A stretch of DNA of 25,312 bases from a virus (IMGVR_UViG_648276668_000012); one strand, 5' to 3'; shown: positions 7,059 through 12,715, counted from the stretch's first letter. Numbers and translations: made by a program. The notes: generated by a model from the letters alone, not told the origin.

Positions 7059-9469
7059 GCCATGCTGATATGAACAACTGCAGCGGCTTTAACGAGGTCG
7101 CCGCAGCATTCTCATGGAACAGCCCGAAAAAGGCCATTAACCCTTATCTGGACCCGGCGGAAGTTGCGCCGGTTTCTGCGCTTTCAAACCTGATCACTCT
7201 GTACGCTGCCGATAACGAGCAGGAACAACTGCGCCGCGAGGCACTGAGTGATCAGGTCTGGGAGCGTTATTTCTTTAATGAATCCCATGATCCTGTCCAG
7301 CGCGAAATGAAGCAGGATAAGCTCATTAGCCGGGCAAAGCTGGCGCATGAGCAGCAGCGTTTTAATCCGGATATGGTCATTCTGGCGGACGTCAACGCCC
7401 AGCCTTCCCATATCAGCAAGCCGCTGATGCAACGTATTGAATACTTTAGCAGCCTGGGCAGGCCAAAGGCTTATTCCCGCTATTTACGTGAGACGATTAA
7501 GCCATGTCTGGAACGACTGGAGCATGTACGCGACAGCCAGCTATCTGCATCTTTTCGCTTTATGGCAAGCCATGAAGGGCTGGACGGCCTGCTGATCCTG
7601 CCTGAAATGAGTCAGGATCAGGTGAAGCGCCTGTCTACCCTTGTCGCCGCGCATATGAGCATGTGCCTTGATGCAGCTTGTGGTGATTTGTATGCCACCG
7701 ATGACGTTAAGCCAGAAGAAATCCGCAAGACATGGGAAAAGGTGGCAGCGGAAACCCTGCGTCTGGATGTCATCCCGCCTGCGTTTGAGCAACTCCGCCG
7801 GAAAAGAAACCGCCGTAAACCCGTGCCCTATGAACTCATTCCGGGTTCGCTGGCGCGTATGTTGTGCGCCGACTGGTGGTACCGGAAATTATGGAAGATG
7901 CGTTGCGAATGGCGGGAAGAGCAGTTGCGTGCTGTTTGCCTGGTCAGCAAAAAAGCATCTCCCTATGTCAGCTATGAAGCCGTGATGCATAAACGTGAGC
8001 AGCGCCGTAAGTCGCTGGAGTTTTTCCGTTCTCATGAACTGGTGAACGAAGACGGCGACACGCTGAACATGGAGGATGTGGTAAACGCCAGCAGCAGCAA
8101 CCCGGCGCATCGCCGCAACGAGATGATGGCCTGTGTTAAAGGCCTGGAGCTTATCGCGGAAATGCGTGGTGACTGCGCCGTTTTCTACACCATCACCTGT
8201 CCGTCACGTTTCCATTCCACGCTAAATAACGGCAGGCCCAACCCGACCTGGACAAATGCGACGGTAAGACAAAGCAGCGATTATCTGGTCGGTATGTTTG
8301 CTGCATTTCGTAAGGCGATGCACAAAGCCGGGTTGCGCTGGTATGGCGTGCGGGTGGCTGAGCCGCATCACGACGGCACAGTTCACTGGCACCTGTTGTG
8401 TTTCATGCGCAAAAAAGACCGCCGCGCCATTACTGCATTGTTGCGTAAGTTTGCCATCCGTGAAGACCGCGAGGAGCTGGGCAATAACACGGGGCCACGC
8501 TTTAAGTCTGAGCTGATAAACCCGCGCAAAGGTACGCCAACAAGCTACATCGCGAAATATATCAGCAAGAACATTGACGGGCGTGGTCTGGCTGGCGAGA
8601 TCAGCAAGGAAACGGGTAAATCTCTGCGTGATAACGCTGAATACGTGAATGCCTGGGCGTCTTTGCATCGTGTTCAGCAATTCCGCTTCTTTGGTATTCC
8701 GGGACGTCAGGCTTACCGTGAACTTCGCTTGCTGGCTGGTCAGGCGGCAAGGCAACAGGGTGACAAAAAAGCAGGTGCGCCGGTACTGGATAACCCGTGT
8801 CTTGATGCCATTCTGGCTGCTGCTGATGCTGGTTGTTTTGCCACCTACATCATGAAGCAGGGCGGCGTACTGGTTCCCCGTAAATATCACCTCATCAGAA
8901 CCGCTTATGAAATCAACGAAGAGCCGACCGCCTATGGCGATCACGGTATTCGTATTTATGGCATCTGGTCACCCATTGCAGAGGGCAAGATCTGCACTCA
9001 TTCAGTGAAGTGGAAAATGGTTCGTAAAGCCGTTGACGTTCAGGAGGCGGCAGCCGACCAGGGCGCTTGCGCCCCTTGGACTCGTGGCAATAACTGTCCC
9101 CTTGCTGAAAATTTGAACCAACAGGAGAAAGATAAATCAGCTGATGGGGACACCAGAACGGACATTACCCGCATGGATGACAAGGAGTTGCACGATTACC
9201 TGCACAGTATGAGCAAAAAAGAGCGCCGGGAACTGGCTGCAAGGTTACGCTTGGTGAAACCGAAACGGCGTAAAGACTACAAACAGCGAATTACAGATCA
9301 TCAGCGACAGCAGCTCGTTTATGAGCTGAAGTCCAGAGGATTTGATGGCAGCGAGAAAGAGGTCGATTTACTCCTTCGCGGCGGCAGTATTCCGTCAGGA
9401 GCAGGCCTGCGTATCTTCTATCGGAACCAGCGTCTGCAGGAGGATGATAAATGGCGGAACCTGTATTAA
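7055..9469 (+). CDS. A: Replication initiation endonuclease gpA (HUH rolling-circle initiator)
   Basis: 804 aa from the ATG at 7055 (ATGA overlap with dam, SD GGAG). The HUH motif [10 protein letters not shown] and the Tyr motif [10 protein letters not shown] are present. Confidence 0.9.
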
Positions 9470-10213: not shown

Positions 10214-10639
10214 CTACTTAATTGAGTCCAGTAACAAGTTACAGTTACTCTCATTGTAGAGAGAACGAGCAATTAGTGTTACCTGCTTTCCATTCATTCC
10301 CGGCTTATCCCATAACACAGCTTCTTGCGACGCCACAAATTCAGCATAATCAATTATGCGTTGTTCGTGATCTGGTTCCTCATAGCCAAAGTATGAGAGC
10401 GCATCGTTGTAAGCGTGGTAAGCTGCTTTCTGTAATATCTTGATATCGGCTGTAGGTACTTGCTCCGTGTAGCTAGGATCTAATTGTGTGCTACTGCCAT
10501 AGAATGCACATGAAAGGTAAGATATTGATTTCTGTTGAGCTTTAGTTCCTTTCTCATAGTTTTTAGCTGTTACCGCCTGAACTGGGACGCTAACAAAGCT
10601 TGCAACCAGAATTAAAATTAATACGTAAAAGCTTTTCAT
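10214..10639 (-). CDS. Secreted or periplasmic hypothetical protein, 141 aa (cargo)
   Basis: The signal peptide MKSFYVLILILVASFVSVPVQA has a likely cleavage after VQA. SD GAGG lies 5 nt upstream. The gene is AT-rich and sits at the P2 old/tin position. Confidence 0.65.
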   Translation of the reverse strand: MKSFYVLILILVASFVSVPVQAVTAKNYEKGTKAQQKSISYLSCAFYGSSTQLDPSYTEQVPTADIKILQKAAYHAYNDALSYFGYEEPDHEQRIIDYAEFVASQEAVLWDKPGMNGKQVTLIARSLYNESNCNLLLDSIK

Positions 10640-10912
10640 TTTGACCTCAGCCGAAACGTTAGAGAGACTATCGAAATTTGTAAAACCCGTGGCGATTCAG
10701 TTTGAGATCCTCCCCCTTACATGATTTTTAATCAAATATATGCTTTTGTAAGCATACCTGTTAACCGAATTATTTATTTTTAGAGATCTTCCGACATACT
10801 GATTATGCCCGCTGAGGAGTTCACCTTGCGTAAAGTCCGATTCGCTTTACTCGTCTGTGCATGCCTATGCTGCATGAGATTGCATGATCGTTTGAGGATC
10901 GTTTTTGCTAAG

Positions 10913-10936
10913 GCCCGCCAGAACTGGCGGGCTTTT
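10913..10936 (+). terminator. Rho-independent terminator-like hairpin
   Basis: GCCCGCCA (10913-10920), loop GAAC, TGGCGGGC (10925-10932), followed by TTTT. Confidence 0.55.
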
Positions 10937-10981
10937 GCGTAGATCATGCACCTGCATGAAAACCACTATATAAAGCGGGCA

Positions 10982-11000
10982 GGCGTGGCGGGGATACGAG
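10982..11000 (+). other. cos-like site (candidate 19-nt cohesive end)
   Basis: GGCGTGGCGGGGATACGAG followed by CGCGCGCTGA. As I recall them, the P2 and 186 cohesive ends are GGCGAGGCGGGGAAAGCAC and GGCGTGGCGGGGAAAGCAT, followed by TGCGCGCTGA in P2. GGGGATACG is repeated at 10990-10998 and 11012-11020. Confidence 0.55.
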
Positions 11001-11087
11001 CGCGCGCTGATGGGGATACGGTGTTTTTAGTAAGGTTATGAGGTAGAATTTGACGCGGTTTTTTTAAGCATATTGAGGTGTAAATAG

Positions 11088-11633
11088 ATGGATGCTATTA
11101 CTGGATTATTGGATTTTTTTAGAAAGATTCCAACGGCACTTCTTGTAGCTATTACATGTGGTTTAAGTTTGATCCTTTTTTTGCCAGAATCTTTAGCTTC
11201 TAAAGTTGCGGTTGATGGTTTCCGTAAAGAATATAGAAATTTCATAGGACCAGCATTTTTACTGGCTGTCTCTTTTTTAGTTGCAAGAGTATATCAGTTT
11301 TTTCATGACCTATATGGCGATAGACAAAGGCACAAAGTACGTATCTCTTATTTGGAGAAGCTAACTCCTGAGGAGAAGGGATACCTCTGGTCTTATATAA
11401 TTGATGGCGAAAACTCACTAATGTGTGGTCCTGAAGATGGTGTTATGGGGGGGTTGGTTGCTAAGCGCATAACCTATAGAGCTGCAAACGTGGGCAGTAT
11501 GATTGACGGATTCGCTTTCAATTTGCAGCCGTGGGCTCGCGAGCATTTACAGAACAACACTCATTTATTAGAAGGAGCGGTCGGTAGGGCAATGACACCG
11601 GGTGAGAAACTAGGATTCAGGCGTAGATTTTAA
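11088..11633 (+). CDS. Membrane-anchored cargo protein, 181 aa; possible SieB-like superinfection-exclusion protein
   Basis: Two N-terminal TM helices (ALLVAITCGLSLILFL and FIGPAFLLAVSFLVARVY) precede a ~100-aa soluble domain. SD GAGGTG lies 8 nt upstream. The gene is AT-rich. The SieB assignment rests on architecture and memory only. Confidence 0.4.
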   Translation: MDAITGLLDFFRKIPTALLVAITCGLSLILFLPESLASKVAVDGFRKEYRNFIGPAFLLAVSFLVARVYQFFHDLYGDRQRHKVRISYLEKLTPEEKGYLWSYIIDGENSLMCGPEDGVMGGLVAKRITYRAANVGSMIDGFAFNLQPWAREHLQNNTHLLEGAVGRAMTPGEKLGFRRRF

Positions 11634-11677
11634 CCAGTCGCACACAGGCGATGCTTGACTGGTTAGACAGGGATAAT

Positions 11678-12715
11678 CTATTCAGCGTTCAACTGGTAGG
11701 GGTCAAAAGATATTATTGGCTCATTTAACCATTCGTTAAGTTCTTCAAGTCGCTTTTGTAAAGGAATTAACTCATTTCGCACAAAAACGCGGCTGGCCTT
11801 TTCCACATCCCCAAAACCTCCAACATTATTTGGCATAATCCCCATCATTTGCGGCGGCACGCGGTGCGCCGCCATCATGTCATCCCGGCTCACGTTCTTG
11901 ATGTTTAGAAACTCATCCTTTGCTGCGACCTCTGACAACGGGATGATCTGAAGCCCATCCTTTTTGCCGTTAGGCGAGTACATAAACAGGTTGCGGAAGT
12001 TGCCCGGACCTTTGGCGCTTTTCATCGCGTTGCGGAGGTTGTTTACGTCCTCCTGGTTCTGCGCAGCATCGGTCATGTACATGATGAAGCCTGCATGACT
12101 GCCGTTAATGTAATACTTGCGGCGGAACAGCGTGGCGGACTCGTTGAGCAGGGCTGACGGAATGGCAGAAAGATAACCGGGCAGGCCGTAGATCTCCTGG
12201 TTAATGTCCGGTTCCATCAGATGAAAAATGCTTCCTTTCGTGAACTGATACGGCTGGGTTGTCATACCGTATTGCACAAACCAGTAGGTATCCAGGTCTA
12301 ACCCGCGTCGGGTGTATTTTGCTAGTGCAGGCTCAAGGGCGATAACTTCACCGAAGCGGTTCGTGCGTTTCTCCAGGTAGGCGTTACCAAATACCAGATA
12401 GTCCTGCACAAAACGCGAAAAAGCTTGCTGGCTGAGCAGAGGATGAGGGATATAGGTACTGGTCAGAATGTTGCACTTTACTGCAATCGGGGAACTGTGA
12501 TGCACGGCAGCGCGGAAGGTGCGCGCCAGTCCGTCAAAGCTGACGGGCGGCTCATACCAACGGTCCATCTGTACGCATTCCACATAGTCCAGTAATTCTC
12601 GGCGGTCCAGAACAGGAACGGGATCGCCGAAGCTGAATGCTTCGGCTGAAGTCTGGCTTTTATTCTGGTTCTGGTTCGTCGACGCAGTGCGGTTTTTCTT
12701 ACTCTTTCCCATCAA
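11678..12715 (-). CDS. Q: Portal protein gpQ
   Basis: 345 aa. It overlaps the P stop and sits at the P2 Q position beside cos. Confidence 0.9.
   Translation of the reverse strand: MMGKSKKNRTASTNQNQNKSQTSAEAFSFGDPVPVLDRRELLDYVECVQMDRWYEPPVSFDGLARTFRAAVHHSSPIAVKCNILTSTYIPHPLLSQQAFSRFVQDYLVFGNAYLEKRTNRFGEVIALEPALAKYTRRGLDLDTYWFVQYGMTTQPYQFTKGSIFHLMEPDINQEIYGLPGYLSAIPSALLNESATLFRRKYYINGSHAGFIMYMTDAAQNQEDVNNLRNAMKSAKGPGNFRNLFMYSPNGKKDGLQIIPLSEVAAKDEFLNIKNVSRDDMMAAHRVPPQMMGIMPNNVGGFGDVEKASRVFVRNELIPLQKRLEELNEWLNEPIISFDPYQLNAE

Follow-up and report, generated by a model that had tools for sequence, protein, structure and literature searches.

A 25,312-nt stretch of DNA (the window) from an Escherichia P2/186-like prophage carries a sieB-family gene between cos and the portal gene Q. 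This is probably best read as a single-gene SieB-family cargo cassette in the Q-proximal half of the gpA–gpQ hotspot, encoding a prophage-expressed abortive-infection/exclusion protein. The cos–Q cargo slot is already known as a hotspot, and the finding is an ordinary one of low novelty, because the slot is a long-known, usually occupied site for swappable anti-phage genes.

The cos module and the adjacent cassette

The late genes Q, P, O, N and M lie to the right of cos; a Dam-type methylase and a DinI-like protein are encoded to the left of it, together with the integrase, CI repressor and replication protein A (Table 1). The segment 9400–12800 is 100% identical to NCBI assembly GCA_000176615.2, and the leftmost 4.4 kb of the window matches several E. 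coli chromosomes at 97% identity. An Rfam scan of the window gave no matches. Between the integrase and CI genes, at 1135–3651 (−), three genes encode an ASCH-domain protein of 123 aa and proteins of 233 and 356 aa, the latter two without a Pfam match. These genes probably make up a second cargo region; a 2026 NAR census (PMC13586616) mentions minor hotspots close to the integrase.

Table 1. Features of the prophage window, with positions counted from its first nucleotide
Feature	Position	Strand	Remarks
Integrase gene	1–1056	−	
CI repressor gene	3674–4327	−	
Replication protein A gene	7028–9469	+	
A-side cargo gene, 141 aa, signal-peptide-like N-terminus	10214–10639	−	phrog_7437 (function unknown), E 4e-99
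Conserved cos module, ~150 bp	10857–11008		blastn of the window against 160 loci
GC-rich hairpin followed by TTTT, within the cos module	10907–10938	+	Inverted repeat I1; 15-nt arms, 87% complementary
cos core GGCGTGGCGGGGATACGAG	10982–11000		P2-type 19-nt cohesive-end homologue
Exchangeable Q-side cassette	11009–11720	+	Upstream region, sieB-family gene, hairpin and variable last ~15 codons of Q
17-nt island GTTATGAGGTAGAATTT	11035–11051	+	Holds a −10-like TAGAAT at 11044–11049
SieB-family (PF14163) gene, 181 aa	11088–11633	+	
9-bp perfect inverted repeat, 17-nt loop	11631–11639 / 11657–11665		100% complementary arms
Portal gene Q	11678–12712	−	ORF list; PF04860 in the identical locus L007; convergent with the cargo gene

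A first-pass annotation of this DNA had placed a cos-like string to the left of the cargo gene, and comparison with P2 supports its being a P2-type cos. The pattern GGCGNGGCGGGGA is matched once in the window, at cos, with a chance expectation of 0.04. The core aligns with the annotated P2 cosL, GGCGAGGCGGGGAAAGCAC, and both flanks are kept, AAGCGGGC before it and GCGCGCTGA after it; it also aligns with P2 cosR and with the 'putative cos' of phage Cartapus. The cos core is the predicted left end of the virion DNA.

In blastn comparisons of the window with 160 related loci, homology spanning cos begins at 10856–10859 in 98 loci and ends at 11006–11010 in 111. The module delimited in this way is common to nearly all related P2/186-like loci, with variable cargo on both sides. 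From the cohesive-end sequence it reaches ~125 nt on the A side and only ~8 nt on the Q side. The GC-rich hairpin within the module was not called by the terminator scan; its stem and the TTTT that follows suggest that it is probably a terminator of rightward (A-side) transcription just before cos. A promoter shared through the cos module was considered and rejected, because its TATATAAAG is not conserved; relatives carry TACATAAAG.

To the right of the module, the 181-aa ORF is preceded by a Shine–Dalgarno-like GAGG at 11075–11078, and 44 nt separate the end of its stop codon (11633) from the stop codon of Q (11678–11680). Its GC content is 40.8%, compared with 51% in Q, 56% in P and 53% in A, and it has the look of foreign, horizontally acquired cargo. 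The interval from cos to the Q stop is 677 nt in the window. In P2 it is 167 nt and gene-free: the P2 map places cosL at 1–19, the tQ terminator at 160–181 and the Q stop at 187, with tQ as the sole content of the interval. The first-pass description of an AT-rich 181-aa ORF with two N-terminal hydrophobic helices, ending 44 nt short of Q and followed by a 9-bp hairpin between the convergent genes, therefore holds in every particular, as does the statement that P2 has no gene between cos and Q.

The limits of the cassette are seen in the same blastn comparisons. Homology to other loci, empty P2-type loci included, breaks at ~11006–11010 and returns at 11721–11736, inside the 3′ end of Q. In Cartapus, a DUF4145 gene occupies the interval that matches this cassette. 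The cassette is probably swapped between phages by recombination, with one junction ~8 nt to the right of the cohesive end and the other inside the 3′ end of Q. The last ~15–20 residues of the portal protein are hypervariable: 128 distinct C-terminal tails occur among relatives. These tails keep a WL..(V/I)I.F..Y.L pattern, and the Q-side recombination junction falls inside the tail.

The 9-bp inverted repeat sits between the convergent sieB and Q genes and overlaps the sieB stop codon. Its folding energy is −17 to −19.5 kcal/mol (z −2.0 to −2.4 against shuffled sequences). No U-tract follows the stem on either strand, and the terminator scan did not call the hairpin. A diverged allele, 73% identical, has a hairpin at the same place, with a longer stem, different bases and a T-rich tail. 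The inverted repeat is a candidate terminator.

A sigma-70 promoter scan of the + strand upstream of the ORF found no canonical site. In the spacer between cos and the ORF, a 17-nt island is perfectly kept in the 73%-identical allele, the rest of the spacer having diverged. The island has no canonical −35 sequence and was not reported by the promoter scan; its conservation and its −10-like hexamer suggest that it may be a promoter element of the cassette.

Several further small elements were seen in this region. A promoter-like site on the opposite strand at the 5′ end of sieB, 11133..11105 (−), has TTGGAA and AATAAT separated by 17 nt, with 9/12 matches, and recalls the sas antisense RNA of P22; it is within chance (three such sites found, 2.0 expected). 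Direct repeats lie at the edges of the cassette. GGGGATACG occurs twice on the left, at 10990–10998 and 11012–11020, and TTTAACCA(G/T)TCG occurs twice on the right, as TTTAACCAGTCG at 11629–11640 and TTTAACCATTCG at 11724–11735. These repeats were not read as recombination scars, being at chance level by a rough estimate.

The sieB-family gene is under strong purifying selection, with a dN/dS of 0.06 between the window gene and a second allele from the same slot (73% nucleotide identity). In the assembly collection, 6679 blocks list the exact 181-aa protein, and the identical protein adjoins Q in all eight loci that were retrieved.

Relationship of the protein to SieB

The 181-aa protein matches the SieB family model PF14163 with 79.7 bits (cut-off 26; E 2.2e-22), and residues 21–157 align with profile positions 5–146 of 147. 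The same model gives 103 bits for lambda SieB and 101 bits for P22 SieB. Direct comparison is less informative: pairwise BLASTP against lambda SieB was not significant, identity to the P22 and lambda proteins is 18–21% in a joint alignment, and a narrow profile of close homologues (A2) reached only 34% probability against the lambda SieB family in hhalign. Because these direct and narrow-profile comparisons were weak, distant relatives were gathered into a diverse profile. An exhaustive profile search for them returned 2127 representatives of 50%-identity clusters at E <= 1e-3, of which 1062 were at E <= 1e-10, and the resulting profile A6 comprised 128 sequences. In hhalign, A6 aligned with P22 SieB at 90% probability (E 1.6e-6, 112 columns) and with the lambda SieB family at 87.5% probability (E 3.6e-6). 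By profile comparison, the protein is a genuine yet divergent member of the SieB family. The first-pass annotation had noted a resemblance to SieB in size and topology, and the PF14163 search and these profile links bear it out.

Structure and nomenclature point the same way. The best structural match in BFVD was a 195-aa P22 'N operon' protein (E 0.015, probability 1.00), which we take to be SieB, and the RefSeq name of the exact protein is 'super-infection exclusion protein B' (WP_000338835.1). Across 39 homologues, 27 alignment columns are invariant. A tblastn search of a phage collection found detectable similarity only to YopH of the Bacillus phage SPbeta and to an ORF of an Akkermansia phage (29–32% identity, E 3e-10 to 3e-13). 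YopH carries the RefSeq name 'superinfection exclusion B family protein'. Both YopH and the Akkermansia phage ORF, which is similar to the present subfamily, come from distant hosts and from other genomic contexts.

Other collections did not recognize the protein. Scans of the ORF found no match in PADLOC-DB 2.0 at E <= 1 and no model in NCBIfam, and in PHROGs it matched neither of the SieB families (phrog_1301 and phrog_6399) nor any other useful model. Silence of this kind is what a decaying remnant or a chance ORF would give, but the dN/dS value, the presence of the exact protein in thousands of assemblies, membership of a large conserved family, a confident structure prediction and a good Shine–Dalgarno sequence make the likelihood of such an origin negligible.

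Compared with the SieB proteins of P22 and lambda, the window protein has a full-length, collinear PF14163 match, two N-terminal hydrophobic helices, a basic linker, an LTxEE..YL helix and a C-terminal domain of similar size, its total length being 181 aa as against 192 and 184. All three genes are non-essential cargo of temperate phages. The differences lie in the low sequence identity, in the failure to match either SieB PHROG, in the lack of an in-frame start at the Esc position and in location: the window gene is found beside cos in a P2/186-like phage, whereas SieB of P22 and lambda is encoded in the lambdoid immunity/N region. In P22, esc is read from an internal start, in frame, at sieB codon 25, and lambda sieB has ATG at codons 25 and 27. 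No ATG, GTG or TTG is conserved at the equivalent position in the window gene and four homologues. An invariant Met120 was considered as an internal start; the claim was not made, because the Shine–Dalgarno-like bases upstream of it follow from conserved E/D-D-G codons.

The hydrophobic segments are at residues ~14–34 (mean Kyte–Doolittle value 2.4) and ~51–72 (1.6). A first AlphaFold2 model, for which 39 close homologues supplied the alignment, was of low quality (pLDDT 66.7) and was discarded. With the diverse alignment, AlphaFold2 gave a pLDDT of 96.6 and a pTM of 0.80. This model has an amphipathic helix at 2–13 and a helical hairpin, made up of helix 16–31 and the start of helix 43–90, which coincides with the two hydrophobic segments. 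The long helix runs on into the basic stretch and is followed by a compact alpha/beta domain at 94–161, which weakly resembles a winged helix. The N-terminal two-helix hairpin is a predicted inner-membrane anchor, and in the model the long helix and the alpha/beta C-terminal domain would face the cytoplasm.

[quoted passage not shown] This is unlikely. The relation that profile A6 has to P22 SieB is absent for P22 SieA, for which the hhalign probability was 3.4%, and in the AlphaFold2 model most of the protein is cytoplasmic domain. Moreover, P22 SieB acts not at entry but in mid-lytic cycle: it halts macromolecular synthesis midway through the lytic cycle in superinfected lysogens (PMC10461980). 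In the account of SieB given there, the abortive-infection phenotype is known only for P22 and lambda. The P22 phenotype cannot simply be assumed for the window protein.

The Q-side slot in related loci

The region between gpA and gpQ has a considerable history as a site of variable gene content. Rousset et al. (2022) defined it as a defence hotspot 'adjacent to the cos site' (PMC9122126), and the primase–portal hotspot is repeated in the 2026 NAR census of de Sousa et al. (PMC13586616). A 2017 paper on the Ralstonia phage phiRSY1 states that the cosL–gpQ interval had been suggested earlier as a hotspot of P2-like phages, citing Dodd & Egan (1996) and Nakayama (1999) (PMC5694545). The same cosL–Q slot carries cargo in the 186-related retron phages (Ec67/Ec86), in phiCTX and, as ORF1–4, in phiRSY1 (PMC5694545). 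The four phiRSY1 ORFs share one orientation and are foreign genes beside cosL, as described in that paper, with a content unlike that of the window. The DUF4145 gene of Cartapus lies in the same slot as the window gene and points from cos to Q; the two slots differ in gene content.

The sieB-family gene agrees with the published hotspot, of which P2 old and tin are examples, in lying between gpA and gpQ beside cos, in the variation of content among otherwise syntenic prophages and in having defence systems as neighbouring occupants of the slot. It differs from old and tin in that these are on the A side of cos and the window gene is on the Q side; in their passages on the region, Rousset et al. 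and de Sousa et al. treat it as one hotspot, with the two sides unseparated. SieB is listed in the supplementary loci table of Rousset et al., WP_021548667 included (PMC9122126), and this protein is an allele found in the same cos–Q slot in E. coli. The main-text passages of that paper on the cloned P2-hotspot systems make no mention of SieB (PMC9122126).

To place the window gene in this setting, 160 loci with a relative of Q were taken, 80 each from species-representative genomes and viral contigs; the survey is biased to Q proteins like that of the window and limited by 4-kb flanks. A cos core was present downstream of Q in 135 of the 160 loci. In these 135, the distance from Q to cos is 111–3506 nt (median 1687 nt); the interval is short and P2-type (<300 nt) in 12 and holds cargo (>300 nt) in 123. 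The 123 occupied intervals contain 210 ORFs in 104 protein clusters. SieB is found in the Q–cos slot in 4/135 loci, and a SieB gene is present in 24/5426 complete E. coli genomes. The sieB-family gene is therefore not a conserved core gene but cargo, as the first-pass annotation had it, and, since most relatives lack it, phage growth does not depend on it.

The suggestion that went with this, that the gene marks an additional and unusual cargo slot, did not survive the comparison. A new left-end slot, normally lacking in P2-like phages, is the impression given by P2 itself, with its short gene-free interval from cosL to Q. Set against this are the cargo in 123/135 loci, the published status of the position as a hotspot (PMC5694545) and the occupation of the slot in Cartapus, and a new slot is very improbable.

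In 109 loci, both flanks of cos were measurable. Cargo of any kind was present on the Q side in 100 (92%) and on the A side in 70 (64%); it was present on both sides in 62, on the A side only, which is the P2 arrangement, in eight, and on neither side in one. In this sample, the gpA–gpQ hotspot consists of two sub-slots split by the ~150-bp conserved cos module. The empty Q-side interval of P2 is a minority state and makes P2 an atypical reference.

Orientation separates the two sides further. On the Q side, 205/210 cargo ORFs run in the cos-to-Q direction and converge with the late P–Q operon, as does sieB here. A-side cargo is of mixed orientation (55 versus 47 ORFs). The bias on the Q side may serve to avoid transcription across cos, or may allow antisense silencing by late transcription; both are possibilities.

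Pfam and PADLOC scans of cluster representatives identified many defence-associated domains in the slot, including TIR, GmrSD, AIPR, retron reverse transcriptases, Schlafen and DprA, in addition to Cap4 nuclease, PIN, AbiC, DndB and AAA_15/21 (AriA-, AbiL- and PtuA-like). PAAR, Fic and thymidylate-kinase domains are also among the hotspot cargo.

The A side of the window holds a 141-aa gene with a GC content of 40.4% and a promoter-like site at 10764..10735; its product has no Pfam match. In the eight retrieved loci, identical sieB is paired with at least six different A-side gene sets: the 141-aa protein; an acetyltransferase with DUF8087; a KAP NTPase; HipA with HIRAN; HEPN_LA2681; and DUF4145. 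DUF4145 itself occurs on either side of cos according to the phage. In Cartapus (L001, NC_070909) it lies at 162–860, between cos and the portal gene, and in E. coli EH09-18-41 (L004/L014) it lies at 5116–5856, on the A side, with sieB on the Q side.

In Pseudomonas, Vibrio and Halomonas, the homologues are found within islands that also encode integrases, IS110 transposases, HipA, a Schlafen-type helicase and CcdAB. No conserved partner gene accompanies them, and the upstream neighbours in Pseudomonas and Vibrio are unrelated to one another; the loci thus give no indication of a two-gene system. Island contexts of this kind, with no conserved partner, are consistent with a stand-alone defence gene.

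The cargo could instead serve a purpose other than defence, for example in host envelope physiology, or as an aid to the replication or lysis of the phage itself. The PAAR, Fic and thymidylate-kinase domains of the hotspot and the neighbouring 141-aa secreted protein of no known function would fit such a role, as would the finding, in the report of Rousset et al., that three of eight additional P2-hotspot systems that they cloned had anti-phage activity (PMC9122126). However, the sole characterized relatives of the protein are exclusion proteins, its contexts in other genera look like defence islands, and the gene is missing from most relatives; a role outside defence is accordingly an improbable account of it.

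Possible action and wider meaning

The protein most likely has an anti-phage role, in abortive infection or exclusion, as judged from its family and its setting. The sieB-family gene would be transcribed in the lysogen, probably from its own promoter, and the hairpin at the left of cos should block A-side read-through into the cassette. The N-terminal hairpin would anchor the protein in the inner membrane, leaving the cytoplasmic domain as a sensor or effector. By analogy with P22 and lambda SieB, the protein may then abort or exclude the development of heterologous phages, with the outcome that the lysogen population and the prophage would be protected.

Two more specific proposals can be added which, taken together, are fairly unlikely. 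In the first, this SieB subfamily would be a defence protein encoded by a single gene, tethered to the membrane and activated by a logic of its own. The cytoplasmic domain might then detect, at the membrane, either phage DNA or a protein of the phage, and the logic of activation and self-immunity would differ from that of P22 SieB. In the second, the gene would be self-silenced by antisense late transcription. There is no U-tract terminator after Q, and the cargo reads almost uniformly from cos towards Q, so late P–Q transcription could run antisense into the cargo; if so, it would silence the defence gene during the lytic growth of the prophage itself. Such read-through might, more speculatively, be how the prophage is spared by its own protein, no esc being evident.

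As an exclusion gene in the Q-proximal half of the hotspot, the sieB-family gene would be one further instance of a documented pattern, in which temperate P2-like phages carry swappable anti-phage genes beside cos. The subfamily to which it belongs is large (>2000 cluster representatives at 50% identity), has a confident predicted fold and is absent from defence catalogues, which makes it a cheap candidate for plating screens. The two-sided anatomy of the hotspot, together with the orientation bias on its Q side, could merit a systematic census.
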